Shown here piece by piece: positions 1 through 64,000 of a DNA stretch of 64,000 nucleotides. The notes beneath the pieces are model-generated. The model saw only the letters and a program-made list of their open reading frames with translations, was not told where the DNA came from and ran no database searches. Where the stretch lies: IMG/VR virus record IMGVR_UViG_3300045988_024527, positions 29,796 to 93,795 of that record, one strand, 5' to 3'. The position numbers were made by a program, and so were the translations under genes. Position 1 is the first letter of the stretch, and every line of letters begins with the position of its first letter. This DNA comes from a virus (Duplodnaviria > Heunggongvirae > Uroviricota > Caudoviricetes).

Positions 1-122
1 GTACTTTCTTCAGCAATATGACCGTTGACTATTTCACTTACCTCACCTTGTAAGTCTGTACACCCACAATGTGGACAACGGATAGGTGTTCCATCAGACT
101 CATAGCAGTGTTCAATTTTCAT
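1..122 (-). CDS. hypothetical protein, partial (start codon at 122, continues past window start)
   Basis: ATG at 122-120 on minus strand immediately after stop of upstream ORF; open frame to window edge; Cys-rich N-terminus (CPHCGC). Confidence 0.4.
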   Translation of the reverse strand, partial: MKIEHCYESDGTPIRCPHCGCTDLQGEVSEIVNGHIAEES

Positions 123-638
123 CTATTTAACCTCAAAAACTGGCTCAAGAACCAATATAAAGTCTACACAGTCATCTTCTTCATCCAGAATACCATCAAA
201 GTTCTTAGGAACGAAGTCGAAGAGGCTCATAACAAAACAGTCAGAAGTGACCCTGATAGTTCCTCCCATATTCTCTACAGTCAACACTGTACGACTTTCT
301 TTCACCTCCCTCAGAAGATTACCCACAAAGTCATCTAAGAAGTACTTCATCAATGACTTAAAACCTTTAGGGTAATCTGTACCAGAGTATGTTTCAATCT
401 GAGGTACAAGCTTAACATTTATACTAGTCTTTGTTAAGAACGTTTTAGAGAACATACTATCAGGTAGCTTACAAACAGTCTTTCCAGTACCTTCATGTTC
501 AATCTCAACAAAACCAGCTTCGTCGCCACATGTAACTATTTTAAAAGATGCTTCATTCTCATACTGTGAAGTCATAAACTTTTTAAGCATCTCTTTAAGG
601 AAATCTGCATGAGCATCTTGTAAGTAGATATCAATCAT
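123..638 (-). CDS. hypothetical protein
   Basis: 171 aa ORF in tightly packed minus-strand operon. Confidence 0.55.
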   Translation of the reverse strand: MIDIYLQDAHADFLKEMLKKFMTSQYENEASFKIVTCGDEAGFVEIEHEGTGKTVCKLPDSMFSKTFLTKTSINVKLVPQIETYSGTDYPKGFKSLMKYFLDDFVGNLLREVKESRTVLTVENMGGTIRVTSDCFVMSLFDFVPKNFDGILDEEDDCVDFILVLEPVFEVK

Positions 639-651
639 AGTTAATCACCTA

Positions 652-1011
652 TTATGGGAACAAGCACTTAATGTCATCGTTTTTGAAAACAAAACTTGTG
701 TAGTTGTGACCATCAACATCCAACCAAACAGCCTGAACATCCACACCATCAAGATTCTGGTAAAGCTCTTTGATGAAGTGGTCTTTCACACTCTGACTAC
801 TGGTTGTTTCCAGTTTAATGTTCGAGATTGCTGAACCTACAGCCATGTAGCCCATGACACGTTTCTTCTCAGTATGCTTAATCTTACCATCTTTGTAAGC
901 CATAATGAGATTGGAAAGAATCTTTACACCATAATACTTTTCAAGGTGAGTAGGTACACCATAAAAACCTAATGCGAAGTTTTCAGAGTGGATAATGTTT
1001 TCACGTTTCAT
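652..1011 (-). CDS. hypothetical protein
   Basis: 119 aa ORF, same operon. Confidence 0.5.
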   Translation of the reverse strand: MKRENIIHSENFALGFYGVPTHLEKYYGVKILSNLIMAYKDGKIKHTEKKRVMGYMAVGSAISNIKLETTSSQSVKDHFIKELYQNLDGVDVQAVWLDVDGHNYTSFVFKNDDIKCLFP

Positions 1012-1012
1012 A

Positions 1013-1342
1013 TTAATCTGCCAACCTTAAATTAAAATTAACACCAAATTTTTCACATACTTCCAACATATACTCAAGGGAAACATTCCCAGTGAGGTGG
1101 ATTATGTTGGATACACGAGCCTGAGAGATACCACAAATTTTAGCAACTTGCTCTTGAGAAAGACCTCTGGATTTAATCTCTCTCTTAAAACGATGTGCAA
1201 CGAAGTCTCTCATTTCGTCTACATCCATTGGACAAATATAACTCTCCATTTCAGCCTCTCTGTCAGCCTCCCAATCATCTTGTGGGGCATAAGGGTCAAA
1301 AACCTCATTCATCTTTCTTCTTCCGTTTGCGTGAAGTGTCAA
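1013..1342 (-). CDS. putative HTH DNA-binding protein
   Basis: helix-turn-helix-like segment LSQEQVAKICGISQARVSNI. Confidence 0.45.
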   Translation of the reverse strand: MTLHANGRRKMNEVFDPYAPQDDWEADREAEMESYICPMDVDEMRDFVAHRFKREIKSRGLSQEQVAKICGISQARVSNIIHLTGNVSLEYMLEVCEKFGVNFNLRLAD

Positions 1343-1517
1343 TCAATGAATCTATGTTTGTAGCCCTAACCTTTTCACGTTCATCATTAAGATAATCATC
1401 AAGAGCCTTTTCAATCTGTGAATCATCTTGACAGATGACTGTAAAGACTGTAAAGCCGTCTGTATCATCAATTATCTTACCATAACCGCTTCTGGGATGT
1501 AACTTTTTAAGAGCCAT
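1305..1517 (-). CDS. hypothetical protein
   Basis: 70 aa ORF abutting next gene. Confidence 0.35.
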   Translation of the reverse strand: MALKKLHPRSGYGKIIDDTDGFTVFTVICQDDSQIEKALDDYLNDEREKVRATNIDSLIDTSRKRKKKDE

Positions 1518-1518
1518 A

Positions 1519-1902
1519 TCAAATACCTGTGCAGCTTCTGTTTTCTAAGAAATACTCAACACCATACATAGCTTTTTGCATCAAATCTTCTTTAAACTGG
1601 ATACGGTGGTTGAGCATCGCCTGTACATCAATATCGTCATGGTGTTTCTCTTTAATGTTTGCAGATTGCAGGAAATACTCTGCAAGAACACGATACTGAT
1701 AGTCAGTTACCTTATCAGTCATCTCTGTCAAAGATTCTTCAGAGATTGGTTTAAGTAACTCGCCTTTAGATAGCGCAACACCTTTTACAATCTGGCAAGT
1801 ATCTTCTGGAACACCTGATAAGTCCACATTTGGGAGTTCTGTTGCATTGACTGGTAAATTCATTGCCATAACCATTGCAGCAGCTAATAAAATCTTTTTC
1901 AT
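1519..1902 (-). CDS. secreted/periplasmic hypothetical protein
   Basis: N-terminal signal peptide MKKILLAAAMVMAMNLPVNA. Confidence 0.55.
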   Translation of the reverse strand: MKKILLAAAMVMAMNLPVNATELPNVDLSGVPEDTCQIVKGVALSKGELLKPISEESLTEMTDKVTDYQYRVLAEYFLQSANIKEKHHDDIDVQAMLNHRIQFKEDLMQKAMYGVEYFLENRSCTGI

Positions 1903-2289
1903 AATGACCTCAAAGTTATATTAAATCTTGTATTACGTTGAGTATAAAAATAAGCTATAACACCTGACTTGTCAACAGATTTTATAGCTTATTTGGCAGA
2001 TTTTTTATAAGGCTACTGCCATCCTTCCATACCAAGCCCTGCCGAACCGAACCATGCTTTGCCATACCGGACAATACCTGACTAGACATCACTTAAAAAT
2101 CCTCTTAGAAGACTCTTAAGTGATGTAATCGAATTTTTATGTAGTTTCGATTAACTACCCATACCAAGCCTAACCTGACCGCACCAAACTTTACAACACC
2201 ACACCATACCTGACCATAACAAACCTCATTAAAAGACCCTGTTTAAAGACCTTTTAAAAAGGAGCCTCCGAAGAGGCTACCTAGTCAAC
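1903..2289. repeat. repeat-rich intergenic region (copy 1) with hairpin and A/C-rich short repeats
   Basis: shares hairpin CATCACTTAA-N19-TTAAGTGATG, CTCATTAAAAGACCCT..TTTAAAGACCTTTTAAAAAGG and CCATACCAAGCC-type repeats with 3336-3730. Confidence 0.7.
2087..2125 (-). promoter_or_regulatory. conserved stem-loop (10 bp perfect inverted repeat)
   Basis: catcacttaa...ttaagtgatg; near-identical copy at 3627-3665. Confidence 0.6.
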
Positions 2290-2730
2290 TTAGAAAGGTT
2301 TTCTACGTTGCTTGTTAATGTTAGCTTTCATAGCAGCTAAATGGTTTTGCTGTTCAATCAGTCGTGAACGTTCTTGATGACTAAGTGCCATAGTGTTCAC
2401 ATTCTCAATTGCTTGAGTGGCTTGTTTTAAAGCACGACCAATCTTACCAGACATTTTACGTTTTGCAATAGTTGCTTGATGTTTAGGTTCAACCACACGA
2501 TAACCAACACCCATTGAAGCAACCAGATAAATCTTCTCTTCTTTAAGAAGTTTCTCAATAAACTTCTCAAGTCGGTTTAGACGTGTAAGTGCATAAGCCT
2601 TCATTTCATCTTCGTACTTAACAATGTCACCTTGATAAGTTGGCTTCACAATACCTAAGAAGGTGTCCATCTCAGAATGTGATACAGTGTCACCGTAACT
2701 AAACTTTGCTGCTAATGCTTTTGTATTCAT
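2290..2730 (-). CDS. hypothetical protein
   Basis: 146 aa ORF. Confidence 0.5.
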   Translation of the reverse strand: MNTKALAAKFSYGDTVSHSEMDTFLGIVKPTYQGDIVKYEDEMKAYALTRLNRLEKFIEKLLKEEKIYLVASMGVGYRVVEPKHQATIAKRKMSGKIGRALKQATQAIENVNTMALSHQERSRLIEQQNHLAAMKANINKQRRKPF

Positions 2731-2732
2731 AA

Positions 2733-3730
<998 letters not shown>

Positions 3731-4831
3731 TTATTCGTAATCCCTAATAACTAGTCCAACAGGAAACTGTAAAGAACCCTTACGAGTCATCTTCTGGAAC
3801 TGAACAGTTAGAGGTTTCCCGATAAACTCTTCAGGATGTTCAGCAAGATACTGTTTCTTCTCATGAGTGGTCTTCCATGAGACATCTACAAAGACGTTAG
3901 GAAGAGTCTCTACAACGAACTTGCCATGACCACGTTTATCGGTCTTTACACCAGTAACTTTAAACTCTTCAGTGTGCATCTTCTTATGCTTAATCAAGAA
4001 GTATGAACGGTGACCACACTCGTAGAAAGATTCTTCAGAGATTGAGCGGTACATTGCACCTTCAAACTTAGCTTCAACCCACTTATCATGGGCTTCATCA
4101 AATTCTTCCCAAGAATTTACACGGATAGTCTGTACAGGAACCACTCGACAGGTATCCCCAAGCTCAACAATAGGTGAACTATCAATAACTTCACGACGCT
4201 CAGGCCAAGATTTTGAATTGTCACAGATATCATACCAGTAGAATTTAAGAAGGTGACGGTCTGGATTGTCAGCATTCTTAATCATAGATACAATATCTTC
4301 TAAGTCCCAACCATGAGCATAAATCTCGCCATCAAAGTCTTCAACTTGCGGGTGTAATTTAAGCAACAAAAGCAAATCTGGGATTAGTTCTGCTGGAACG
4401 TTGTAAACAGTATTCTCACGAGAATAAGCCGTAAAACTAACTGAATCAACATCTCTTGAAATTCTACAACGTACACCATCCAGTTTTGGTTGAGCATCAG
4501 CAGGAAATATCAAATACTTTGCATGACTAACCTTTGCAGCATCATGAGCAAGCTGTACACCTACCTTCTCAGTATTCTGTGCAGACTCTTTTGTGTAAGC
4601 ATAACCTTTACGGTCAACTTGCTTTTTATACTTAGCAGCAACTTCAAAGAGAGCTTGCTGTTCAGCATTACGCTCATTCTTTTTACCGATGTTTTTAGGT
4701 TCTGCTGTATACTCTTCAAACATCATCTTGCCATTTTCTTTACCGTAGGTTGTAATAACTTTGTTACCTATAGCACCACATGACCAGATGTTGAAGGAAC
4801 CGTCTTTATTTTGTTTGTACAGTGTTGTCAT
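3731..4831 (-). CDS. ATP-dependent DNA ligase
   Basis: nucleotidyltransferase motif I KLDGVR (lysine adenylation site); size and layout like T7-type ligases; start probably at MTTLYKQ. Confidence 0.75.
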   Translation of the reverse strand: MTTLYKQNKDGSFNIWSCGAIGNKVITTYGKENGKMMFEEYTAEPKNIGKKNERNAEQQALFEVAAKYKKQVDRKGYAYTKESAQNTEKVGVQLAHDAAKVSHAKYLIFPADAQPKLDGVRCRISRDVDSVSFTAYSRENTVYNVPAELIPDLLLLLKLHPQVEDFDGEIYAHGWDLEDIVSMIKNADNPDRHLLKFYWYDICDNSKSWPERREVIDSSPIVELGDTCRVVPVQTIRVNSWEEFDEAHDKWVEAKFEGAMYRSISEESFYECGHRSYFLIKHKKMHTEEFKVTGVKTDKRGHGKFVVETLPNVFVDVSWKTTHEKKQYLAEHPEEFIGKPLTVQFQKMTRKGSLQFPVGLVIRDYE

Positions 4832-5024
4832 TTTTAACCTCTGAGTGATACCAAGTATTGCAAGCATTACATGCGTAAAGCTCTAAGTCATTTTTATCTG
4901 GTTTGTGGAAACAGTTTGACCCACAACGACACCGGAATAACTTACCATCAACACGAAGAATGAATGTTTCAAGCTCACCATCTTCTGTAAGAACTGCGTT
5001 CTTAAATTTATCTTCTACAGTCAT
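4806..5024 (-). CDS. small zinc-ribbon protein
   Basis: CRCGSNC...CNACN cysteine pairs. Confidence 0.4.
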   Translation of the reverse strand: MTVEDKFKNAVLTEDGELETFILRVDGKLFRCRCGSNCFHKPDKNDLELYACNACNTWYHSEVKNDNTVQTK

Positions 5025-5227
5025 TTTCTCTTACCACCAATCTCTACGTCAATAACTTGAACATCGCCAGCAACATCAAACTTATGAATGATGCTTTCAA
5101 CAGTGTAAGTCCAACCATCAATACGAACCAACTCACCTTCTCGTGGGACGATTGGGTTACGTTGGGCTACCGTTGTAGTGGAGTGAACAGTATCATAACA
5201 GTAGATGTAGTTTACTAGAACTTGCAT
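5021..5227 (-). CDS. hypothetical protein
   Basis: 68 aa ORF, overlapping stop/start. Confidence 0.4.
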   Translation of the reverse strand: MQVLVNYIYCYDTVHSTTTVAQRNPIVPREGELVRIDGWTYTVESIIHKFDVAGDVQVIDVEIGGKRK

Positions 5228-5236
5228 ATCTTCACC

Positions 5237-5491
5237 TTAAAAGAATAAGTCAGATGCTTTTGGGTTGGTTAAACTAATGCAGTTTTGAAGCATAGCTTCA
5301 TTGTATCCCTCTTGGCAAACTGCGTAGAGTTTATCGAAAGTTTCTTTTGATACTGGGGAGGCTGATAACTCTTGGCATACACTAAGATACCATTCGTAAT
5401 CTAAGCCTCTGCTCCAAGCGTCAGCGATTAGTACTGTAGCTTTGTCTTTGCTTCTGATAACTTCATCAGACTTTTCAATTTTACTGTTCAC
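5237..5491 (-). CDS. hypothetical protein
   Basis: 84 aa ORF. Confidence 0.4.
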   Translation of the reverse strand: MNSKIEKSDEVIRSKDKATVLIADAWSRGLDYEWYLSVCQELSASPVSKETFDKLYAVCQEGYNEAMLQNCISLTNPKASDLFF

Positions 5492-5653
5492 GATGCTCTA
5501 CCTCTCTGTACGTTCGTCGATAGTCTATAATAAGTTGTGCTAATTCGTTGCTTTTAACATTCGAACGTAGCAGTTGCCAATCAAAACCTTTACCGACTCT
5601 TCCATATAAACTAAATAATTTTACTTTGCGTTTCATTTTGGTATCCCCAATAC

Positions 5654-5881
5654 TCAGAGGTCAATGCTAATACGTTCACCCTTAAGGACTCCAGTACGGT
5701 CTCTTGCAATCTTACCGTCAACAATAAGGATGTGTGCAGACCTTAAAGAGTCACCATTAAAAGTTTTTACGAACTTACTAGGCATCACTACAATGGACAT
5801 CTCCTGAATCAACTCTGGAGTATAGCAATTGTCGTGAAGTTGCTGAATAACGTCTGCAAGTGTCATTTTTGATGTCTCCAA
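5654..5881 (-). CDS. hypothetical protein
   Basis: 75 aa ORF. Confidence 0.4.
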   Translation of the reverse strand: METSKMTLADVIQQLHDNCYTPELIQEMSIVVMPSKFVKTFNGDSLRSAHILIVDGKIARDRTGVLKGERISIDL

Positions 5882-6072
5882 TACTCAATGTCAATAAGTT
5901 CTTGTGCAATGCTTTTTAGATTACCTTTCAAGAAAACCTTCTCAGAACCTGAAAGAGATGAATTGTCAATTAACCTGCTCATCCTCTCAAACAACTTCTG
6001 TTTACGGTTCTTGATAGTTTCCTTTGAAGCACCTTTCATCATCGCTGCATGGGTTCTTCCACGGTGGCTCAT
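5863..6072 (-). CDS. hypothetical protein
   Basis: 69 aa basic ORF. Confidence 0.35.
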   Translation of the reverse strand: MSHRGRTHAAMMKGASKETIKNRKQKLFERMSRLIDNSSLSGSEKVFLKGNLKSIAQELIDIEYWRHQK

Positions 6073-6123
6073 AAGCCCTCCTATACAAGATATAGTATAA
6101 GGTACTCTTCCCTGAGCACCTTG

Positions 6124-6657
6124 TCAACTTAGTTTTGCAAACTCTCCGTGGAGTTTAATAGCAGCTTCACAGTAAGCTTTATAGGCTTCTTCAGGTGTGT
6201 CATGGTGACCTAAAAACATCTTCTTACCTTTATAACTTATCTGTGCGACCCACTTACCGGACTTCTTCTTAAGACTTACACCCTTGTACCCAGATTTATT
6301 GGTGACTGGTTTACCTTTATTCCAAGCACTTTGAAAATCATCTGCTTCCCTTAAGTTTACAATCCTGTTGTCAAGCGAGTCTCCGTTGATATGGTCAATG
6401 ATACCTTTTGGCATCTTGCCATACACGTAAAGCCATGCGAGTCTGTGTGCTTTATGTGCTTTCTTGTCAAAATAGATACTAATCTGTTTATGACCACTTG
6501 AATCAGTCTGGATATTACCTGCCACCTTTCCTGCATAATTACTGTTAAAAACACTAACAGCTCTTGATTTACCTTCTCTACGAAGCCAAGTAAAGACCCC
6601 TGTTTCGGGGTCATAGTGCAGCAGCTCCTTTAAACGTTTTTGTAAAATTAAATCCAT
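6124..6657 (-). CDS. HNH homing endonuclease with AP2 DNA-binding domain
   Basis: YDPETGVFTW N-terminus, HNH core AHRLAWLY..IDHINGDSLDNRIVNLRE, AP2-like GYKGVS..KWVAQI; paralogs at 16217 and 29784. Confidence 0.8.
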   Translation of the reverse strand: MDLILQKRLKELLHYDPETGVFTWLRREGKSRAVSVFNSNYAGKVAGNIQTDSSGHKQISIYFDKKAHKAHRLAWLYVYGKMPKGIIDHINGDSLDNRIVNLREADDFQSAWNKGKPVTNKSGYKGVSLKKKSGKWVAQISYKGKKMFLGHHDTPEEAYKAYCEAAIKLHGEFAKLS

Positions 6658-6660
6658 TAA

Positions 6661-9390
6661 TCAATGTACCTCATACCAGCTCTTACCAACCTTTGCTGTA
6701 CCAGTTACAAGTGTTTCTTTCCTCAAACCTAAGTTTTTTGAAGCTTGTCCATACATCCAGTCAGCAATTGCTTTCATATCCTGTGTCATACCCTCTGGAC
6801 ATTCCCAACTATTTTCATCGTGATATGCCAGAAGTAACCTTGCTCCGATAGCTGGTTTTCGAGCATTCAGTTTTGTCAGGCCATCTTCACAGGCTTTTCT
6901 TGCTGCTAGGTTGATGGCCTCATTCTGAATCTGTGCTTCCGAACTCATCAGGAGGTAGTTCAGTAGTTTATGTGGAGATTTGCACCATATCCATGCTCCA
7001 GCGACCCTGATATAACCACCTTTAGCAATTGAAGAATTCTTCCCAAAAACCTCTTCCAGAGCCTTTTTAGACGCCTTAAAATCGGCTTCTAAGCTATCAA
7101 GTAACTTCTTAATCTTTGGCAGACGCATATAGTAAGTTTGTTTAGTCAATGCACCTTCTTCCGTAGATGATGCCTTGATAGTTTTTGCAAACTTCTCGTC
7201 TCCGGCTCCAAATAACAGGGCGTAGATGCCATTTTTGCTCTTCTTACGGCCTTTTGTAATCTCGTGAAGAAGTTCCTCATCCTGTGTCTCCCTACAACGA
7301 ACAATATCTTCTTCCTTGTTCAGACCAAAGTAAATACTGTTCAGTGTATGCGCATCAGTCCCTGTGTAGACTTCATAGAGGTCGTTCTCAGCATCATAAC
7401 GAAGATACTTGTCAGTTTCTGGATTAAGATACTTATTGAGATGCTTGCAATAGTATCTGCCATCCTCTTGCTTAGTGAACTCTACCGACTCTTTACCCTC
7501 AGTTACTGCTTTAGTGAAGTCTTCATCACCCATAAAGTTACAAAGAAGAACTAGCTGTGCAGAGTTCTGGTCAACTGAAACAATGTTAGTCCCTTCCTCA
7601 CAAATCCAAACCTCCCTCATAGGTGCTCCATAGACAGCAGCACCAGACGGTACGTTTACAATACCATATTGTGTCATACGTCCAGTTGAAGTACCAAACA
7701 CCATTGCACCAGCACTAAGGCGACCATCTGGACGAATCTGGTTCAACCAACCTTTTTCATCATCCTTTGAGTTCTCAATAGTTCTGCGTCTGTGCATCAA
7801 AGTATAGTACTTAGCAATCTTCTGTCCAAGCTCACCTTCAATCGTATCATAAGATGATTCAGTAAGTTTTGGTGAAGTACGGATTAAGCAAGGTTCAAGC
7901 AAATCTGTGTACTTCTTCACAGACCAGTTATGCTCAATGTACTGTACACCTTCATGTTCAACATAACTCAAACCACACCGCTCGACCATTTCCTGCCACT
8001 TAGGATGCTTTGTAATCATCTTTTTATTGTCTTTGAAACGACAAACTTTGACAGGGCGACCATCTGAGTCTTTCTTGTAGTTCCAGTCATCTGGAATCCA
8101 ACCAACTGATTTCAAGTAGTCTTTAACAACTGCTACCTGAGTCATACGAGAAACTTCAAACTCAATTGGTGTATATGGTGCATCAATCAAACCTGTGTAG
8201 CGACTTGACTCAAGTTCAAAGTGGTTAACAACATGGCTGTTATAGTACTTCACAGTTTTGACTGTTTTTACTGGCTTCCAGTCTTTGCATTTCTTACCAA
8301 TCTTTGCATTCAACTCATTGCAAATTGCACGAGCATCCTTCATTGCTACAAAGCCTTCCTTGTACTCTTCACCAGTTACAGAGTTGGTTGGTGTATAGCA
8401 ATTTCTCTTTTCAATGTTAAAAATCTTTGTAGTTGGCTTACCAAATGGTTTGATTTCGTATGTCTGCATCTCGCCATTACGTACCTGCTGACGATACTTT
8501 GTCTTAGGGTACTTGGTAATTCTTTTCAGTCCATCTGCATGACCAAATGTTTCAACATACTCATTCCAAGCTTTTGCAAACTCTTCTCCAGTGACTTTAC
8601 CTTTGGTCTTAATAGTTGGAGGAAGATGTGGTTCAACCTCTGAAGCAAGCTCATTAGTCAATTTGTCAAGTTCCTTCACATGGAACTCCATAAGCTCTTT
8701 ATCAGCTTTCCAGCCATTGATAGCTTGTTGACTCATCCAGAAAGATGTTTCTTTAGCTCGCATATAGGTTTCATAAGTATCTATGCCACACTTCTTAAGC
8801 TTGAGATACTCATTATCAAGTGCCCGTTTAGCTTTGGCGTTAATACGGATGTCTTCTACAACACGAGTGAAGATTTCTGCATTCCATACACCCCAATGCT
8901 CAATCTCTGGTTTACGAACACCAACACGAGCACCCCATGCAGCCAAACCATGAGCACCTTTATAACCCTTCGGAGTTGGTCTATCCATCCACTGAACACG
9001 AGACTGGATAAGAGAATCCTGAAAGAAATTACTCCACGGTTTACACTTTGGATTATCAAAGTTCCATAAATCAGGTGCAATGTGATTGAAAACCCACCAG
9101 TCATAACCGAGGCCGTTATGGATACAAAGTCGTTTTGCCTTTAACGCAAACTCAACACCTTCACGTAAACTACCCTTAATGTACTTGGTATACTTGTGAC
9201 CGAGGATAGGCTCATCTGTAAAGACCCATACAGGTGGCTCTTCATCGTCAGATTTATAGTCTGCGAAAGCCATTACGTGCACTTTAGTGAACTCAAGGAG
9301 TAAACCATCAGTTTCTGTATCACCAACTAAATGTAAGTTTTTAAAATCTACGTTTTCCATTTTTACTCCCTCTAAAATCATTAACCTCAT
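6661..9390 (-). CDS. DNA polymerase, family A, with 3'-5' proofreading exonuclease
   Basis: Exo I motif VGDTETDGLL; Pol motif C YHDE; motif B-like KKSKNGIYALLFGAG; 909 aa. Confidence 0.9.
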   Translation of the reverse strand: MRLMILEGVKMENVDFKNLHLVGDTETDGLLLEFTKVHVMAFADYKSDDEEPPVWVFTDEPILGHKYTKYIKGSLREGVEFALKAKRLCIHNGLGYDWWVFNHIAPDLWNFDNPKCKPWSNFFQDSLIQSRVQWMDRPTPKGYKGAHGLAAWGARVGVRKPEIEHWGVWNAEIFTRVVEDIRINAKAKRALDNEYLKLKKCGIDTYETYMRAKETSFWMSQQAINGWKADKELMEFHVKELDKLTNELASEVEPHLPPTIKTKGKVTGEEFAKAWNEYVETFGHADGLKRITKYPKTKYRQQVRNGEMQTYEIKPFGKPTTKIFNIEKRNCYTPTNSVTGEEYKEGFVAMKDARAICNELNAKIGKKCKDWKPVKTVKTVKYYNSHVVNHFELESSRYTGLIDAPYTPIEFEVSRMTQVAVVKDYLKSVGWIPDDWNYKKDSDGRPVKVCRFKDNKKMITKHPKWQEMVERCGLSYVEHEGVQYIEHNWSVKKYTDLLEPCLIRTSPKLTESSYDTIEGELGQKIAKYYTLMHRRRTIENSKDDEKGWLNQIRPDGRLSAGAMVFGTSTGRMTQYGIVNVPSGAAVYGAPMREVWICEEGTNIVSVDQNSAQLVLLCNFMGDEDFTKAVTEGKESVEFTKQEDGRYYCKHLNKYLNPETDKYLRYDAENDLYEVYTGTDAHTLNSIYFGLNKEEDIVRCRETQDEELLHEITKGRKKSKNGIYALLFGAGDEKFAKTIKASSTEEGALTKQTYYMRLPKIKKLLDSLEADFKASKKALEEVFGKNSSIAKGGYIRVAGAWIWCKSPHKLLNYLLMSSEAQIQNEAINLAARKACEDGLTKLNARKPAIGARLLLAYHDENSWECPEGMTQDMKAIADWMYGQASKNLGLRKETLVTGTAKVGKSWYEVH

Positions 9391-9430
9391 ACATTACTGC
9401 AAAAAATTATAAAAAGCAAGTTGACAATGC

Positions 9431-9443
9431 ACTTGACAAGGTG
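9431..9443 (+). promoter_or_regulatory. conserved 13-mer ACTTGACAAGGTG (promoter-associated motif)
   Basis: same 12-13-mer at 25920-25931 and 55230-55242, each at the start of a plus-strand gene block; tandem TTGACA boxes. Confidence 0.45.
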
Positions 9444-9617
9444 TTAATCTTTGCGAAGTGGGTTTTTACTTAAAAGGTTACTTAACAGTTTAACTATACA
9501 GATACTTTAAAACTCTTAAAAGATTATTTAATAGCTTTTAAAAAGCTTTAAAGTATAACGTATAGAATACGTTAAGATAAAAGATTAAAACTTAATAGTT
9601 ACTTAAAAGAGGCTTAC

Positions 9618-10040
9618 ATGCAGAAAATGTTTGTTCACCCAGACATAGCTGACTTTGTTAGAGCTTTGCAGAAGTTGGAAGAACTTGACATTGCTGCTCA
9701 ACGGGAATATGCTCACCATCACAGGAGGATGGTTGATATACAACATGAAATAGAGTTGTCTGAAAACTATGAAGATGACTTAAAATGCTCTGTATTTGAG
9801 CATATGAAAGATGTTGCTACAGCGAGACGCAAAGCTAAAGACACAGTTGCTTTACTAGATTCTCTTAAAAAGAGGTTGCAAAGTGGTACAGACCTGTGTA
9901 ATCTAGCGTCACTGATTAACGATGTTGAAACTTCTTGGGATAGGCACTATTATCCACGTTCTGAAAAGACACTTGACTTTTCTTCATCCGAAAACTTAAA
10001 ATGTTCTAGAAAGAAACTTAACCAACTGAGAGAGAAATAA
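9618..10040 (+). CDS. hypothetical protein
   Basis: 140 aa ORF with RBS. Confidence 0.5.
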   Translation: MQKMFVHPDIADFVRALQKLEELDIAAQREYAHHHRRMVDIQHEIELSENYEDDLKCSVFEHMKDVATARRKAKDTVALLDSLKKRLQSGTDLCNLASLINDVETSWDRHYYPRSEKTLDFSSSENLKCSRKKLNQLREK

Positions 10041-10041
10041 T

Positions 10042-10842
10042 ATGAATATCGATGTAGAAAAGATGCTTGAAGAGAAAGGTGTTGATGAAGCATTCTTAAT
10101 CAATGCCGTAGAAAGCATGGCTATGATTCTTCGTGGGAACAACTACACAGAACAGTTTATGCCTGCAAGCTACAACTTGCCTGAAGACAAGTCTGATAAC
10201 GGTGCTTTTGCAGAACAGGTTAATATGATGTTGACAGACACTACACTTGCTCTGGCATCTATTGCGGTTGGTGTTGATGCACTTGCTGAGTTCATTTTTT
10301 ATGAAATGCAAAAGAATGACTATATCAGGATGTCAGACGAAGATAAGGAACTGTTGCTGACTAAGGACGCTGATTTCATTATTGATACGCTTATCTCATC
10401 AACGAGTGCTGTAATGGCTGCTCTTGAGAAGCGAATGGAAGAGAAGTTGTCACGATATGAAAAACTTGATTGGGGTGTAGAAGAACTAAGCCCACGAATC
10501 AAAGAGATTATACAGCAAACTAAAGATTCTTTGGAAGAAGCTGTTGAAAATGACTCTGTAGCTGATATAGAACCACTTCAGGTGAAAGTTGCACTGATGA
10601 TTCCAGCTATCTCTACGATGATGAATATCGTTGCACTAATCCAGCTTTCACAGATGATGGGTGTGAGTATGGAGTTCATTGAGGAAATGACTGGTGGTGT
10701 TAGTATGCAAGCAATCAATGATGTTTTGGTGAACATTGGTGCTTCAATCATTGAAGAGAAACTACGCATTAACTTCGGTGATGATTTTGTGAAGCAAATC
10801 TCAGCTATGGCTGAAAAAGAGTATGCTGACCAACTGCACTAA
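10042..10842 (+). CDS. hypothetical protein
   Basis: 266 aa ORF. Confidence 0.5.
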   Translation: MNIDVEKMLEEKGVDEAFLINAVESMAMILRGNNYTEQFMPASYNLPEDKSDNGAFAEQVNMMLTDTTLALASIAVGVDALAEFIFYEMQKNDYIRMSDEDKELLLTKDADFIIDTLISSTSAVMAALEKRMEEKLSRYEKLDWGVEELSPRIKEIIQQTKDSLEEAVENDSVADIEPLQVKVALMIPAISTMMNIVALIQLSQMMGVSMEFIEEMTGGVSMQAINDVLVNIGASIIEEKLRINFGDDFVKQISAMAEKEYADQLH

Positions 10843-10903
10843 GTCTTTATAAATCTTACAAGCCTCCTTAGTTGGGGGCTTTTTAGTAATTAATGGAGAT
10901 AAA

Positions 10904-11647
10904 ATGAGTAATATTATAGCATTTACTGGAAAGGCGCGTTCTGGAAAAGACACCTCATGTTCTATTGTGAAGAACATCTTAGAGGATGAGCACGGCTACA
11001 ATGTTGCAGTAATGGCCTTTGCAGACAACCTTAAACTATCTGCATCAAAGATATTTGACCTAACTTGGAATGACCTGTATGGTGAAACTAAAGAGACTCC
11101 GCAAGTATTTGACTTATCATATCATGAACTGATGTTTAAAGTTACGGAAGCTATGGAGTTCACCTTCAGGGATGAACGTTACCATATGGACTTCAAGCTT
11201 ATGTCAGAGTTAACCGGACGATTAATCATGGAGCTTAAGAAGGTTGCTAAACCGACTCTATTGACACGTCTGGGGTTTAGCAAGAAGTATAAATTCTCAT
11301 CAAGACAAATTCAACAGATTTGGGGTACTGAAGTTATCCGTAAAGTTATGGGTGACAAATTCTGGGCTAAAGACCTTGAAAAAAGAATGGTTAGATTCCA
11401 TGAAATGTGCTCACTTAGAAATCAATATGGTTTTGTCTTAATCAGTGATTTAAGATTTGACTCTGAAGCTGAATGGCTGAGTAGATTTGCACACCAAACT
11501 ATTGAAGTAAAAAGAGACAATGTGGACAAAGTTTCATCACATGTTTCAGAAAATGGGATTTCTACAAAATATGAGCGTGACATTATTCATAATAATGGTA
11601 CTCTTGCAGACCTTGAGAACAAGCTAAGAGCCATCATTAAAGTTTAA
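10904..11647 (+). CDS. deoxynucleoside monophosphate kinase
   Basis: P-loop GKARSGKDT near N-terminus, size about 250 aa as in T4 gp1-type dNMP kinases. Confidence 0.65.
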   Translation: MSNIIAFTGKARSGKDTSCSIVKNILEDEHGYNVAVMAFADNLKLSASKIFDLTWNDLYGETKETPQVFDLSYHELMFKVTEAMEFTFRDERYHMDFKLMSELTGRLIMELKKVAKPTLLTRLGFSKKYKFSSRQIQQIWGTEVIRKVMGDKFWAKDLEKRMVRFHEMCSLRNQYGFVLISDLRFDSEAEWLSRFAHQTIEVKRDNVDKVSSHVSENGISTKYERDIIHNNGTLADLENKLRAIIKV

Positions 11648-40429: not shown

Positions 40430-40675
40430 TCAATTTGTGCAGGTATCTGTAGGGGTCTGCACAGATATCCCAAAAAATCTCATCGCCGGATAGAAAAATC
40501 ATTTTCAAAACGTGCAGACCCCGCTCAGGTCGGGCAAGAAAAATCATTTTAGAATCGTGCAGGTAGGTTTTTATAGAGAGCCAGACCAGCCCCTCTCCCC
40601 CTCTTACTCCCCCTCTCCCCAAAAGTCAAGAGAAAAATTTGTAGCGGATTGAAAAATAATTCTTGATTTGTGTTC
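40430..40675 (+). promoter_or_regulatory. operator/iteron-like direct repeats (4 copies of TCATTTTNNAANNGTGCAG) with inverted repeat and C-rich tract
   Basis: copies near 40433, 40498, 40544, 40655; inverted TGTGCAG..CTGCACA at 40436-40463; CCCCTCTCCCCCTCTTACTCCCCCTCTCCCC at 40589-40620. Confidence 0.6.
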
Positions 40676-42344: not shown

Positions 42345-42430
42345 GATTTTTAGATAGGCTAAATTACACATCAACGGGGAGGGAATGACCTTCCCCACTA
42401 AATAAAGTCCTAAACTGGAGATTCAAAAAA
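42345..42430 (+). repeat. cassette boundary type A (promoter + stem-loop + conserved RBS leader)
   Basis: TTGACA-17-TAAATT then GGGGAGG-GAATGAC-CTTCCCC hairpin then ACTAAATAAAGTCCTAAACTGGAGATTC..ATG; copies at 43385, 44636, 45397, 45990. Confidence 0.75.
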
Positions 42431-59111: not shown

Positions 59112-59606
59112 GTGATACTTATGATTTGTGCTAACAAAGATTGCGGAAATGAAGCCGTTAAAGGTGGAAAATTTTGCTCACGCTCTTGTTCTGCAAAAGT
59201 GAACAACAAGAAACACCCAAAGAGAAGTCAGGAAGGCTCTTGCCATTCATGCGGAAAGGTAACGCCAAAAGCGAGAAAATACTGTGACGAATGTATTGCA
59301 GGTGGAGTCATGAAAAAACATAAGACCCATCATGAAAAAAGCAAAGCCAAATCACTGCACGTTAAAAAGTCTCGTGACAGACTGAAGAAGGCTTTAGTTG
59401 ATTACAAGGGTGGTTGTTGTTCAATTTGTGGTTACAATAGGTGCATAAAGGCTCTAGAGTTTCACCACTTAGACCCTAAGACAAAAGACTTCACAGTAAG
59501 TAAAAAACACTACTCACTGGCTACAATGCAGTCTGAAGTTGATAAGTGTGTCTTGCTTTGTGCAAATTGTCACAGAGAAGTACACGAAGGGGTAACAATG
59601 CTGTGA
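59112..59606 (+). CDS. HNH endonuclease
   Basis: EFHHLDP..CVLLCANCHREVH HNH motif plus N-terminal Cys-rich region. Confidence 0.65.
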   Translation: MILMICANKDCGNEAVKGGKFCSRSCSAKVNNKKHPKRSQEGSCHSCGKVTPKARKYCDECIAGGVMKKHKTHHEKSKAKSLHVKKSRDRLKKALVDYKGGCCSICGYNRCIKALEFHHLDPKTKDFTVSKKHYSLATMQSEVDKCVLLCANCHREVHEGVTML

Positions 59607-59675
59607 AAGCACATATGGATGTGCGTTCGGCTGATAACCGAAAGGCAGAAGGTTCGAATCCTTCTCACAGTACCA
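59600..59675 (+). tRNA. tRNA-Ile (anticodon GAU)
   Basis: D-arm GCAC-ATATGGAT-GTGC, anticodon stem TTCGG/CCGAA loop CTGATAA, T-arm GAAGG-TTCGAAT-CCTTC, CCA; 5' end overlaps HNH stop. Confidence 0.6.
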
Positions 59676-59690
59676 ATTTCAAAAAAGTTG

Positions 59691-59719
59691 TTGACATTGA
59701 GATGTGACTACTTTATAGT
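59691..59719 (+). promoter_or_regulatory. consensus sigma70 promoter
   Basis: TTGACA-17 bp-TATAGT. Confidence 0.55.
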
Positions 59720-59923
59720 AACCTTAGTTTTCGTTGCGTAGCGTCTATTTTGCAAATTTAAAATAAATGCAAACGACAATGTTTTTCTGGCAGTAGCTTG
59801 ATAGGCTAAACACCAGTGAGGTCTTCCAATCCCTCATCAAAGAATTTGGCGTACTCGCCCACGGTATGATTAATAAGGTGGGCATCTTTAAGGGCTTTCT
59901 AAGAGAGTCTTTAAAGATAATTA

Positions 59924-60005
59924 CGGGGCGTATCTCAGCTGTCTTCTAAACAGCCGTTAACCGAGTAAGTGGAGTATGCGGGTTCGAGTCCTGCCGCCTC
60001 GACCA
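59924..60005 (+). tRNA. tRNA-like gene, non-canonical (possible anticodon UCU/Arg; no clear D-arm)
   Basis: acceptor CGGGGCG/CGCCTCG, T-arm GCGGG-TTCGAGT-CCTGC, CCA; stem-loop GCTGT-CTTCTAA-ACAGC. Confidence 0.4.
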
Positions 60006-60060
60006 ATTTTGGAGAAATCATGAAAACTTGTATTAGGTGCAAACTTAGCAAGGATGAATA

Positions 60061-60175
60061 GGTAAGGTGTTGAATGTTAAAAAAAAAAAATCCCATTATT
60101 TGACGAGATAGAAAACAACTCAGTAACAAATGGTGACTCTATCGAGCTAATAAAAAAAGTACAAACTCAATCCGC
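60061..60175 (+). repeat. direct repeat copy 1 (start of plasmid unit; repeated at 63889-64000)
   Basis: GGTAAGGTGTTGAATGTTAAAAA..CCCATTATTTGACGAGATAGAAAACAACTC..GCTC near-identical except poly-A length and one substitution. Confidence 0.85.
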
Positions 60176-60995
60176 TCACTTAATACTGAGTGATATTCCT
60201 TACGGAATAGGAGCTGATGATTGGGATGTACTTCATAAAAACTCGAACAATGCCTATCTAGGTTCAAGCCCCGCACAAAAATCAGCTGGTGCCATTTTCA
60301 AAAAAAGAGGAAAGCCTATAAATGGCTGGTCTGATGCAGATAGAAAAATACCTTTAGAGTATCAACAATGGTGTGAAGAGTGGGCGAGGGAATGGTATCG
60401 TGCCTTAAAACCAGGAGCTAGTGCAATCATTTTCGCTGGTAGGAGATTTTCACACAGATGTATTTGCGCAATGGAAAATGCTGGATTTAACCTCAGAGAT
60501 ATAATCGCATGGATGCGAACAAAAGCTCCTCATCGTGCACAAAGGCTAAGCTGCGTATATGAAAGGCGTGGGGACCAATATAACAAAGAAAAATGGGACG
60601 GCTGGAGGGTTGGAAACTTACAGCCAACATTTGAGCCAATACTATGGTTTTCAAAACCCTACAAAATAGGAGGGACTATTGCTGATAACGTTCTATTGCA
60701 TGGTGTTGGAGCATATAACCAAGATGCGTTCACAGCAAGAAATGGAAAACCTGAAAATGTAATACATGCTGGCTTTGAGAGAAATGAAGGTGGATTACAT
60801 CCAACGCAGAAGCCTGTTTCGCTGATGAAAGCGCTAATAGAACTAACTACTCAAGAAGGACAGCTAGTAATAGATCCATTTAGTGGTAGCGGTTCAACTC
60901 TTGTGGCAGCAAAAGAGCTGGGCAGAAACTATATAGGCTTCGAGTTTAACCCAGCATATGTAGAAATAAGCAAAAAAAGATTAGAAGATAAATAA
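60074..60995 (+). CDS. Type II DNA methyltransferase (amino-MTase, motif IV before motif I); frameshifted in A12 tract
   Basis: motif IV SDIPYG, motif I VIDPFSGSGST; ATG at 60074 is out of frame with the body (frame opens at 60081) because of 12-A run at 60079-60090; in-frame in second copy. Confidence 0.75.
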
Positions 60996-61922
60996 CTACT
61001 TAAGTGACAGTATATTATTATCTGTCACTTTATTTATTTGGTCTATCCTACTGTCTATTTTATGCATTTTTATCAACGCACTGACAGCCTCATCCTTGGT
61101 CATCATTAGCATCCTTGTACGTTCAGAAGATAGAAATTCTATAGCCATTTTTTTTGAAACGGCAATACCCTCAGTTGTGGCTGATTTTTCATCACTCCAA
61201 AGCTCAGCTATCCTACTATCATAGCTTAACATTGTTCTATTTATATTCACCCAATATTGCACACTATCTTTGCTAGGGTTGAGTAAAGATACAGATTTAA
61301 ATATTTCACCAAGAAGGTTTTTACTATCTTCAGTTGTTGCTATAGCTGAATATCTTATGAGAACGGCCAGGTGTGTATATGTAAAAACACAAACATTTCG
61401 CAATATAGCTTGCTGATATATTTGACTTGATTTTGTTGGCAACTGATATATTGGACATACAACCATTGCAAAGTCTTTGGTATTTCTCCAACCATCCATA
61501 GCCTGAACTTTAAAGTCTTTTTGATTTTTTGCAGTTCTACTCAAGCGAAATACTTTGGCATCTGCCACAAATGAATAGCTATCGCAAACAACCTCAACAT
61601 CAGCCGCATCTGCCCTTTCAGTCAAAACAATACTATTTAACCCTAAATATTTAAAACATTCTGATATCAGTGCATCTGTATACTTTGAGTACAGTTTTTC
61701 TTCACTTGAATCATGATCATATGACTCAGGTATTGCTGTGCATAACCTAAGGTGGTCTAGTAATGCTTGACTTCCAGATTTCTTAACCTCATCTATTATT
61801 TCATTTTCAACTCTGCTTGAGTCGTTAACAAAGTGACCACTTAGTTTTACTATTTCATCAATCCAGTAACGCCTTCTTATTATTGCATCTTCAGTAATGA
61901 ATTTAAAATTACATAAGTCCAT
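60996..61922 (-). CDS. putative Type II restriction endonuclease
   Basis: 308 aa ORF convergent and abutting the MTase; possible PD-(D/E)xK-like CD..VADAK; no direct motif proof. Confidence 0.45.
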   Translation of the reverse strand: MDLCNFKFITEDAIIRRRYWIDEIVKLSGHFVNDSSRVENEIIDEVKKSGSQALLDHLRLCTAIPESYDHDSSEEKLYSKYTDALISECFKYLGLNSIVLTERADAADVEVVCDSYSFVADAKVFRLSRTAKNQKDFKVQAMDGWRNTKDFAMVVCPIYQLPTKSSQIYQQAILRNVCVFTYTHLAVLIRYSAIATTEDSKNLLGEIFKSVSLLNPSKDSVQYWVNINRTMLSYDSRIAELWSDEKSATTEGIAVSKKMAIEFLSSERTRMLMMTKDEAVSALIKMHKIDSRIDQINKVTDNNILSLK

Positions 61923-62394
61923 TTTTAATACCCGATATAATTAATCAATAACTCAGTATAATCTCGCGATCATAACAGATTTTTTCATCTGCCGAATAAT
62001 AGAACTATCAGTTTATATGGCTAGAGATTCGCTTGTATTTACCATAACATCCGTTGCGTGCACCGCCTGAGAGGCTCTCAGGGCGTTTCTGACGGGAAAC
62101 CGGTAAAACAGGCAACAAACTACCCGAAAACCCGCCAGAAACGCGCAGGCTCTGTTTTTACGGCATGCATGAGTATGCGCGCAAGTGCATAGCGCGGAAA
62201 TTCACGCCATTCAGCCGGGGTAAGTCCTGTTTCCGTCGTTCTTCCCACCCGAAAACGGTGAACGGGGACGCAATTTATTGCGTGGCCGTGAGGCGTTGCC
62301 GGCACAGCCGGAAAACCCGTTTTCAGCACGTTCAGGAAGGGGGCCGATGTACGAATGGTTCAGGGAACGGATCTGAGGTAATCCGGTAGTTACT

Positions 62395-62525
62395 TTGTAG
62401 TTTATCTGTAGTTTTCTTGTAGTCTATTAGTAGTCCGCCACGGTTTTTGTAGTTTTTTTGTAGTCTGCCATCACTAATGCAAAACGTTTTTTGTAGTTTA
62501 TCTGTAGTTTTTGGTTGCTCAGATG
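62395..62525 (+). repeat. iteron-like direct repeats (TTGTAGTYT units)
   Basis: TTTGTAGTTTATCTGTAGTTTT twice plus degenerate TTGTAGTCT copies. Confidence 0.6.
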
Positions 62526-62808
62526 GTCATGCTTGCATGACCATCAAAGAATAGGACGCTTTTTAGCCAAATACCCCTTAACCTACGGAGAGCGCCCTAC
62601 CAAAAAAGATGATTTTTTATCCCTTAAATGGTCATACACCATACGCAACCGCGATTTTCATCGCAATTGCATGAATTAAAAGGTAAAAACTGAATTTCCC
62701 GTTTATTTATGTAATACGCAACGTATTACAACCACCTGTAATCACATGAAAATAAAGAAATAAGATGTAATACCGGCGTATTACACGTACGCTGACCAGC
62801 GAAAAAAG

Positions 62809-62958
62809 TTATAACGCTTCCCTGCCGACAGGCGGGCCAAAATCCACCGGGGCGTGCAGGTTCTCTTCAGTAACCTGCGCCATTAAATCAAAAAGGTCAT
62901 ATTCGCCGGGAAGCTGCGTATCAGTCGCATCCCGTTGTTCATCATATTCAGATGGCAT
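62809..62958 (-). CDS. small acidic hypothetical protein (plasmid)
   Basis: 49 aa ORF with ATG, just upstream of ori region; weak. Confidence 0.25.
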   Translation of the reverse strand: MPSEYDEQRDATDTQLPGEYDLFDLMAQVTEENLHAPVDFGPPVGREAL

Positions 62959-63029
62959 GGGGTGATATCCAGTAGCTGAAAGGTTGTTAGCGGGTTTCGG
63001 GGCGCAGCCCTGAACCAGTCACGTAGCGC

Positions 63030-63860
63030 TAGCGGAGTGTATCCGAGCTTATTATGTTGGCATGAGTGCGATGATCAGGAAAGTGCTTCATGTGGCAGGA
63101 GAAAAATGCAGCAGCGGAGCGTAAGCAGAATATGCGATACAGGAGATATTCCGCTTCCTCGCTCACTGACTCGCTGCGCTCGGTCGTTCGGCTGCGGCGA
63201 GCGGTACAGGCTTACGGGCGGGGCGGAAGTGTCCGGGAAGATGCCAGGGAGAGACGGAAAAGGGAAGCGAGAAGGTCGCGGCGAAGCCGTTTTTCCATAG
63301 GCTCCGCCCCCCTGACAAGCATCGCGAAATCTGACGCTCAAATCAGTGGTGGCGAAACCCGACAGGACTTAAAGATCCCAGGCGTTTCCCCCTGGTAGCT
63401 CCCTCGTGCGCTCTCCTGTTCCTGCCTTTCGGTTTACCGGTGTCATTCCGCTGTTATGGCCGCGTTTGTCTCATTCCACGCCTGACACTCAGTTCCGGGT
63501 AGGCAGTTCGCTCCAAGCTGGACTGTATGCACGAACCCCCCGTTCAGTCCGACTGCTGCGCCTTGTCCGGTAACTATCGTCTTGAGTCCAACCCGGAAAG
63601 ACACGATAAAACGCCACTGGCAGCAGCCATTGGTAACTGATTTACGGAGCGAAGCGTTAAGTGTAATAGAGTTCTTGAAGTGAGCGGCTTACTACAGCTA
63701 CACTGGAAGGACAAATTAGGTCACTGCGCTCCGTGAAAGCCAGTTACCACGGTTCAGAAGTTCCCCAACTAACTGAACCCTGAAAAAGCCGCCTCCCCAG
63801 GCGGTTTTTTCTTTTCAAAAGGCTACGACGAAAGGTTATCCTGCGTCAAGATAACTTTGG
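63030..63860. other. ColE1/p15A-family plasmid replication origin region
   Basis: long stretches match remembered p15A/pMB1 ori (TTTTCCATAGGCTCCGCCCCCCTGACAAGCATC..GCGTTTCCCCCTGG..GTTCGCTCCAAGCTGG..CACGAACCCCCCGTTCAG). Confidence 0.85.
63711..63808 (+). ncRNA. RNA I-like antisense replication control RNA
   Basis: position and similarity to ColE1/p15A RNA I; ends in terminator GCCGCCTCCCCAGGCGG + TTTTTTC. Confidence 0.6.
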
Positions 63861-63888
63861 TAGTTATAATGAAGTGAATAAACCATTG

Positions 63889-64000
63889 GTAAGGTGTTGA
63901 ATGTTAAAAAAAATCCCATTATTTGACGAGATAGAAAACAACTCCGTAACAAATGGTGACTCTATCGAGCTAATAAAAAAAGTACAAACTCAATCCGCTC
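63889..64000 (+). repeat. direct repeat copy 2 (restart of plasmid unit, MTase 5' end in frame with 8-A tract)
   Basis: matches 60061-60175; ATG at 63899 gives MLKKIPLFDEIENNSVTNGDSIELIKKVQTQSA. Confidence 0.85.

Follow-up and report, generated by a model that had tools for sequence, protein, structure and literature searches.

The window analyzed here comprises 64,000 nucleotides (nt) of the IMG/VR virus record IMGVR_UViG_3300045988_024527 and contains, near its end, a junction between the genome of a Felixounavirus, i.e., a relative of phage Felix O1, and a small ColE1-type plasmid with a restriction-modification system. Comparison with related contigs indicates that this junction represents an established capture of the plasmid methylase gene by the virulent phage and not a chimera. 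Taken as a whole, the arrangement is most probably explained by a captured methylase cassette together with an assembly loop that brought the whole plasmid into the scaffold. The 1.05-kb plasmid-derived methylase cassette in the phage is the real part of this arrangement; the remainder of the plasmid and its apparent 'restart' are probably artefactual.

The junctions between phage and plasmid DNA

Positions 1–60058 of the window were identified by megablast as Felixounavirus DNA, with about 92–97% identity to hundreds of phages; they belong to a virulent myovirus of the Felix O1 type. Homology to these relatives ended at 60058 (individual matches stopped at 60009–60059), and a match to the Escherichia coli plasmid NZ_AP027826.1 started at 60061. 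Thus, the abrupt phage-to-plasmid junction that an earlier note on this DNA had described from the sequence alone is real. The switch itself, which the note had placed directly after the last tRNA (60006), was located at 60059–60061 (junction 1): the stretch 60020–60061 is still phage DNA and consists of 13 codons of an HNH homing-endonuclease gene and a TAG stop codon.

Positions 60061–63888 formed a unit of 3,828 bp that matched NZ_AP027826.1 (3,824 bp) over 100% of its length with 99.5% identity. As the earlier note had reported for a circular replicon of about 3.8 kb, the unit restarts at 63889. Positions 60058–60086 recurred at 63885–63913, and positions 60083–60177 at 63906–64000, a repeat far beyond chance. 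Within the window, the two copies differed only in the length of a poly-A run (12 A versus 8 A) and at 60122 (A/C).

By exact look-up of the restriction-enzyme protein, the window was traced to a scaffold of 94,450 bp in the European Nucleotide Archive (ENA; ERZ28577067, COST17-1_SAMEA4545312_METAG-scaffold_225, hereafter scaffold_225), of which it is a rotated reverse complement. Window positions 31113–64000 were covered with zero mismatches by three stretches of scaffold_225 (L003, L016 and L031), one of which runs 7.9 kb beyond the window end. The window numbering carried on past 64000 into scaffold_225 is referred to as extended coordinates. In this numbering, the plasmid-derived DNA spans 60061–64939 and corresponds to plasmid coordinates 334–3824 followed by 1–1385, i.e., 1.28 units. 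Phage DNA resumes at extended position 64940 in the same HNH gene and is collinear with Felix O1 and vB_EcoM_CRP22, in both of which the intact gene has 115 codons (ORF45 in Felix O1). About 170–185 bp of the HNH gene are missing between the junctions. The right junction (junction 2) lies inside a microhomology of 15 out of 17 positions (CATCATTnGnATCCTT), where the plasmid reads TCATCATTAGCATCCTT and the phage reads CCATCATTTGAATCCTT.

The plasmid piece fixed in the phage has a length of 1,052 bp (1,056 bp in the present strain). It starts 14 nt upstream of the methylase ATG, so that the AAGGTG ribosome-binding site was kept and no plasmid promoter was included; its other end lies within the convergent restriction gene, of which the 3'-terminal 121 nt are included. 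In the plasmid unit, the stop codons of the two convergent genes abut at 60995/60996. The intact methylase of copy 2 matched PF01555 (E = 3.7e-49) and contains the motifs SDIPYG and DPFSGSGST. Just past the methylase stop codon, at 61003–61031, a 9-bp inverted repeat (AAGTGACAG ... CTGTCACTT) with a loop of 11 nt was observed, followed by a T-rich tract. This inverted repeat, which lies inside the restriction gene 3' end and is kept in the phage cassette, received no call from the repeat scan owing to the length of its loop but could act as a methylase terminator.

Both junctions in contigs from independent samples

The exact methylase protein of copy 2 was found on scaffold_225 only. A near-identical methylase, P0014, which has two of the three unusual amino-acid changes of copy 2, was found on eight contigs. 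Seven of these, originating from at least four other projects, were examined (Logan SRR21920111, SRR21920112, SRR16308656, SRR16308649, ERR2843581 and ERR2843560; ENA ERZ27240445). All seven carried one methylase of 305 amino acids (aa), no restriction gene and no plasmid backbone, and the four longer ones (11–41 kb) carried flanking Felixounavirus genes. In contig L032, the methylase gene lies between a DUF2828 gene with tRNAs on one side and the DUF7338, DUF7217, terminase and portal genes on the other.

From scaffold_225, a single-cassette model was constructed that consists of the left junction, one cassette and the right junction in direct succession; it aligned to the related contigs in one piece through both junctions. 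All six aligned contigs showed junction 1 without a single base difference, and the same applied to junction 2 in the five contigs that extended to it. The poly-A run consisted of eight residues in each of the six, with the reading frame intact. Since both junctions were identical in contigs from independent samples, the phage-plasmid junction is a fixed feature of a Felixounavirus sub-lineage. No close homologue of the methylase was found among the deposited phage genomes of the searched collection, where the best tblastn match showed 41% aa identity and came from an Aeromonas phage, and megablast of the cassette region returned no phage match. In E. coli complete genomes, only the plasmid part of the window was found.

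Direction and age of the transfer

The cassette shared about 98.2–98.4% nucleotide identity with plasmid methylase genes. Because it includes 121 nt of the adjacent restriction gene 3' end, the transfer took place from plasmid to phage. In comparison with eight close plasmids, 19 substitutions and one indel within plasmid coordinates 334–1385 (1,052 bp) were private to the scaffold, versus only one private allele in the next 1,180 bp. Twelve private alleles were shared with related phage cassettes. Relative to the plasmid gene, the methylase open reading frame (ORF) showed 11 synonymous and 3 nonsynonymous codon changes, and that of L032 showed 9 and 2, respectively. Since the private alleles are shared with phage cassettes and are mostly synonymous, the methylase has for some time evolved in phages, where it was subject to purifying selection.

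Illegitimate recombination probably put the plasmid piece into the HNH gene within the phage tRNA cluster, replacing about 170–185 bp. The donor was a small ColE1-type plasmid of the pEC156/EcoVIII family with a HindIII-type restriction-modification pair (predicted target AAGCTT), and the captured DNA comprises the methylase ribosome-binding site, the complete 305-codon ORF and 121 nt of the restriction gene tail.

The slot after tRNA-Ile was found to be variable among Felixounaviruses. It holds a PDDEXK_5 nuclease gene, an HNH gene or, in the present lineage, the methylase cassette; compared were L018/L019 near locus positions 11000–11600, L030 at 1327–1848 and the window at 59112–60061. The slot looks like a hotspot of homing-endonuclease turnover, and this turnover may have favored the methylase capture.

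The full plasmid copy as a probable assembly loop

Scaffold_225 closes on itself as a phage genome, and its two ends overlap by exactly 55 bp (Table 1). Such a k-length end overlap is typical of SPAdes-type assemblers, and here it would mark a circular path in a de Bruijn graph with k = 55. When a circular element shares a repeat with a longer genome, graph assemblers of this type write the element in once, flanked by the repeat, and isolated single-nucleotide polymorphisms (SNPs) in the repeat collapse to one allele. In all likelihood, the full plasmid copy and its 'restart' are a loop artefact of this kind in the k = 55 graph.

All 55-mers common to the two copies lie in a single uninterrupted block of 710 bp. 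To the left of this block, the variants specific to copy 1 (A12 and 60122A) are no more than 62 nt away from junction 1. On the right side, copy 2 has ten variants of its own (64656–64917), and the gaps between them and to junction 2 measure 6–50 nt, i.e., all below 55 nt. At every variant more than 55 nt away from these junction-linked chains, both copies showed the phage allele. At 60257, 60401, 60402 and 60509, phage-lineage alleles were present in both copies, and the spacing of the phage-lineage alleles inside the block makes each of them a closed bubble at k = 55. Thus, the sequence shows what a loop artefact predicts: an end overlap of length k, block bounds set by spacings larger than k, and two identical passes through the block.

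The following course of events would account for this pattern. The same gut sample would have contained free plasmid, and one block of 55-mers would have been identical between phage cassette and plasmid. The four arms would be kept apart by the junction-linked variants, while the middle would collapse to a single edge with the alleles of the majority, i.e., the phage. In this graph, the plasmid backbone would form a simple loop on the phage path, walked once in the order phage, shared block, rest of the plasmid, shared block and phage. Without the loop, the phage genome would have a length of 90,572 bp instead of the 94,450 bp of the scaffold, and 90,572 bp lies within the range of 84–91 kb reported for Felixounavirus genomes. 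Once the loop is removed, scaffold_225 carries the methylase without its cognate restriction gene, as do the seven related contigs.

A second assembly (ERZ19692995) contained the 19,516-bp MEGAHIT contig k109_45447, which starts at window position 40607, is identical to the window in its first 12,771 bp and passes straight through 42360–42414. If collinear, this contig stops near window position 60122, about 62 nt inside the cassette. The strain-specific A/C variant is located at this position, and a stop here would point to a fork in the graph.

Other origins of the variants were considered and set aside. Mutagenic break repair as the source of the SNP clusters near the junctions was dropped, since the same SNPs are present in related phages and are mostly synonymous. 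Edge effects of repeated gene conversion are needless as an explanation of the 'clean' middle, which has phage-lineage alleles in both copies. Long-read homopolymer error as the cause of A12 versus A8 was also dropped: apart from this run, the sequence deviates from the reference plasmid by substitutions, and the scaffold represents a path through a short-read graph with k = 55.

Weighing of alternative explanations

Several points weigh against the proposed capture and loop. The methylase start that is linked to junction 1 has the A12 run, by which the frame is broken in scaffold_225 (A11 or A8 would be in frame), and the phage's own methylase copy may be inactive in the present strain. The run length may have been mis-assembled, the inactivation may be recent, or transcriptional slippage on the long A run may rescue the frame. 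The 174-aa product with an F-to-S change that is predicted for the single-cassette strain was present on no record; look-up of the truncated 174-aa methylase returned only ordinary plasmid contigs with broken genes. The single-cassette arrangement was not directly seen in any assembly of SAMEA4545312. In addition, the loop was deduced from sequence patterns alone, the assembler and k = 55 solely from the end overlap of 55 bp, and the AAGCTT specificity from family membership.

The earlier note had named a chimeric assembly among its explanations. An assembly problem is indeed a valid candidate, namely in the form of the loop. A random chimera, with phage and plasmid never joined in nature and 60059–60061 stemming from a chimeric read or a mis-join, is highly improbable. 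Scaffold_225 does come from a short-read metagenome assembly, A12 and 60122A, which lie nearest to junction 1, are unique to it, and an exact search of the junction 37-mer in three contig collections (viral_contigs, genome_contigs and metagenome_contigs) gave no match. However, independent assemblies from several other projects show the same two junctions without any difference, and phage DNA continues in the HNH gene in which it had stopped. Moreover, junction 2 lies in the 15/17 microhomology, and the substitutions found in the cassette are specific to its lineage and mostly synonymous. Judged by the related contigs and the shared alleles, a pure chimera can be regarded as refuted for practical purposes. 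The tandem multimer of the earlier note was considered as a plasmid multimer or rolling-circle concatemer on the phage genome end, such as might be found in a transducing particle or after end joining; it has next to no probability. Inside the 64-kb window, the unit simply restarts at 63889, which speaks for a multimer. Beyond the window, however, copy 2 stops at plasmid coordinate 1385, phage DNA resumes in the same gene after 1.28 units, and the scaffold closes on itself as a phage genome.

A true cointegrate would have arisen, while the phage infected a host with the plasmid, from a single homologous crossover between the phage cassette and the plasmid methylase gene. The result would be a Campbell-type insertion with the methylase region as flanking direct repeat in a molecule of 94.4 kb, possibly present in a subpopulation. 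The gross layout (phage, left end of the cassette, plasmid, right end of the cassette, phage) is exactly the product of one crossover. Copy 1 has phage-type alleles on the left and plasmid-type alleles on the right, and copy 2 has the reverse. Homology of 98% over about 1 kb amply suffices for recombination, and 94.4 kb exceeds the genus range of 84–91 kb by only about 4%. However, a crossover at 60638–60833 predicts plasmid alleles in copy 2 at the equivalents of 60257, 60401, 60402 and 60509, and the phage-lineage alleles were found there in both copies; to account for them, one would have to assume additional gene conversion or a resident plasmid of an unusual type. Moreover, the boundaries between copy-specific and shared variants follow a 55-nt k-mer logic, which biology has no reason to do, and backbone DNA was present in none of the seven related contigs. 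Thus, the straightforward cointegrate offered in the earlier note does not fit the SNP pattern, and a cointegrate of any kind appears unlikely.

A broader version, which would again make the scaffold a real molecule, holds that Felixounavirus recombines with EcoVIII-type plasmids via the cassette and packages the whole ColE1 restriction-modification plasmid. This is quite improbable. If it were true, the captured gene would double as a landing pad, and a lytic phage would become a vehicle spreading such plasmids. In a lesser variant, to which the same low probability applies, the A8/A12 run would be a slippage-prone switch of the phage methylase.

Features of the phage and plasmid parts

The features of the window are compiled in Table 1. 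Nine tRNAs were called by ARAGORN between 57404 and 59675. The element at 59924–60002, which the earlier note had taken as the last tRNA, was retained as a marginal Rfam match (31.2 bits) and received no ARAGORN call; a tRNA is annotated at this position in at least one related phage record (LR597663.1). The consensus match at 59691–59719 is the best candidate for a phage promoter reading into the methylase cassette.

In the plasmid part, the restriction-modification system described in the earlier note is present (methylase, PF01555; restriction enzyme, PF09518), and so is a replication origin, although its description as p15A-like has to be corrected to ColE1-type (RNAI at 63712–63813, 77.3 bits). 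The higher GC content ascribed to the plasmid applies only to 62750–63750 (53–58%), whereas the methylase and restriction genes (60074–61922) have a phage-like GC content of 34–42%. The 'iteron-like' repeats are accompanied by shorter TGTAGTYT units in a phase of about 11 bp and are followed by a perfect hairpin (GGTCATGCTTGCATGACC) at about 62525–62542. This region is common to many related small plasmids without restriction-modification genes.

Two ENA scaffolds of 13,956 bp from two samples (L004 and L005) contained the restriction-modification pair twice, separated by ISL3 transposase copies and msrA/msrB. The doubling could stem from a further wrap-around or loop in the assembly; alternatively, it may reflect a plasmid-borne composite transposon. 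Among the small plasmid contigs L039–L048, the restriction gene was split or the methylase cut to 174 aa in many assemblies, whose coverage was often low. Such broken genes reflect either frequent homopolymer assembly errors or naturally inactivated systems.

Table 1. Features of the 64,000-nt window and its source scaffold in window numbering (extended coordinates beyond 64000).
Feature	Coordinates	Strand	Remarks
Scaffold_225 stretch L016	31113–42414		Record 1–11302; zero mismatches
Scaffold_225 stretch L031	42360–60526		Record 76284–94450; zero mismatches
Stretch shared by both scaffold_225 ends	42360–42414		End overlap of exactly 55 bp
tRNA-Ile	59600–59675	+	Last confidently called phage tRNA before the junction
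Sigma-70-like promoter match	59691–59719	+	TTGACA, 17-nt spacer, TATAGT; 11/12 positions; consensus match only
Marginal tRNA-like element	59924–60002	+	Rfam tRNA, 31.2 bits versus gathering score of 29; no ARAGORN call
5' remnant of the phage HNH homing-endonuclease gene	60020–60061	+	13 codons, MKTCIRCKLSKDE, then TAG made by the junction
Cassette-homologous region, copy 1	60061–61116	+	Plasmid coordinates 334–1385; Shine-Dalgarno AAGGTG, methylase ORF, 121 nt of restriction gene 3' end
EcoVIII-like beta-class N6-adenine methylase gene, copy 1	60074–60995	+	Start frameshifted by A12; longest ORF with start codon 60471–60995 (174 aa)
Poly-A run of 12	60079–60090	+	8 in copy 2, in all plasmids and in 6/6 aligned related phage contigs
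Identical block of 710 bp	60123–60832 (= extended 63946–64655)	+	Only 55-mers shared by the two copies, one contiguous block; proposed twice-walked repeat edge
HindIII-family type II restriction endonuclease gene	60996–61922	-	308 aa; PF09518, E = 1.5e-105; HindIII structures (PDB chains), E = 6e-37
Plasmid-only part of the proposed loop	61117–63888		Most of restriction gene, repeat region, ColE1-type origin; almost no scaffold-private alleles
'Iteron-like' repeats	62394–62511	+	TTTGTAGTTTATCTGTAGTTTT and variants; repeat family D2, plasmid backbone
RNAI, antisense regulator of ColE1-type replication	63712–63813	+	RF00106, 77.3 bits (Rfam)
Cassette-homologous region, copy 2	63889–64000 in window, on to extended 64939	+	Intact 305-aa methylase ORF 63901–64818

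Discussion

The captured methylase would be transcribed from phage promoters and would methylate many phage AAGCTT sites, so that progeny could escape cleavage in hosts with the plasmid restriction enzyme. This likely represents an orphan-methylase anti-restriction strategy that acts by self-methylation of phage DNA. The 60-kb phage part of the window contained 40 AAGCTT sites, as compared to 32.6 ± 5.4 expected (about 33 expected in the window). Thus, the site is not avoided, and the phage is exposed to the enzyme. Together with the 11 synonymous versus 3 nonsynonymous changes of the methylase, these unavoided sites lend indirect support to the predicted methylation and protection of phage DNA. 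The 3.9 kb of plasmid-derived DNA contained zero AAGCTT sites, which lends weak and non-specific support to AAGCTT recognition.

The donor system matches that of pEC156, a ColE1-type E. coli plasmid with the EcoVIII system, a HindIII isoschizomer with a beta-class N6-adenine methylase (PMC4743918, PMC6456624, PMC5974420). M.EcoVIII methylates the first A of AAGCTT (PMC5974420), and the EcoVIII restriction gene has two rare codons followed by a frequent one from codon 16 (PMC6456624). The plasmid described here is similar: it is small, its ColE1 replicon includes RNAI, its HindIII-family restriction gene converges with the gene of a beta-class N6-adenine methylase, and rare arginine codons cluster from codon 16 of the restriction gene, where R16-R17-R18 are encoded by AGA AGG CGT. 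Recognition of AAGCTT is predicted from this arginine cluster as well as from family membership. However, the unit has 3.8 kb and pEC156 has 4,312 bp. The AGG tandem of the methylase gene is reported at codons 167–168, whereas AGG-AGA was found here at codons 122–123, and of the reported AUA codons 11, 22 and 25, only 11 and 25 are present. Since unit size and methylase codon landmarks differ, the plasmid, as compared by published landmarks, is a relative of pEC156 and not the same plasmid.

Phage capture of a methylase is a well-known kind of event. In a review (PMC10286901), the orphan-methylase strategy is described for Bacillus phage SPR and lactococcal phage phi50, and phi50/pTR2030 (Hill et al. 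1991) and phage orphan methylases (Murphy et al. 2013) are cited. As in phi50/pTR2030, a virulent phage took methylase sequence from the type II system of a host plasmid, by which it would escape that system, and left the restriction gene behind. In contrast to that case, the host group here is the Enterobacteriaceae, the phage is a Felixounavirus, and the methylase comes from an EcoVIII/HindIII-type system of a ColE1 plasmid. Moreover, the complete ORF was taken together with its ribosome-binding site, and both junctions and the destroyed HNH gene can be read at base resolution; the activity is predicted. Phage-plasmids and cointegrates of the P1/N15 type, or formed by plasmid transduction through homology, also combine phage genes and a plasmid replicon on one sequence. 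Unlike these, the present phage is a virulent Felixounavirus without plasmid lifestyle genes, its relatives lack the replicon, and the allele pattern argues against physical linkage in the scaffold. 'Spurious cycles' in metagenome graphs are among the topics discussed in PMC9104695. In contrast to a generic simple-loop traversal, the repeat here is a genuine ancient transfer between replicons, so that the probable artefact sits on a real junction.

For sequence catalogues, these findings carry a warning, since a phage genome of 94.4 kb that seems to be complete and circular probably includes a 3.8-kb non-viral plasmid. Annotation pipelines would call its plasmid replication origin and its restriction enzyme gene phage-encoded. 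For phage biology, the cassette offers a clean natural case in which a virulent enterobacterial phage took over the antidote half of a restriction system encoded on a plasmid. With a nucleotide identity of about 98%, the donor is identifiable; both breakpoints can be read, and several unrelated samples show the same event. The characterized Felixounavirus isolate JohannRWettstein was reported to be remarkably sensitive to restriction-modification systems (10.1101/2021.03.08.434280). Because a member of the genus is unusually sensitive in this way, the cassette should widen the host range of the phage on plasmid-bearing E. coli, Klebsiella and Salmonella, and a wider host range matters for phage therapy and phage typing.

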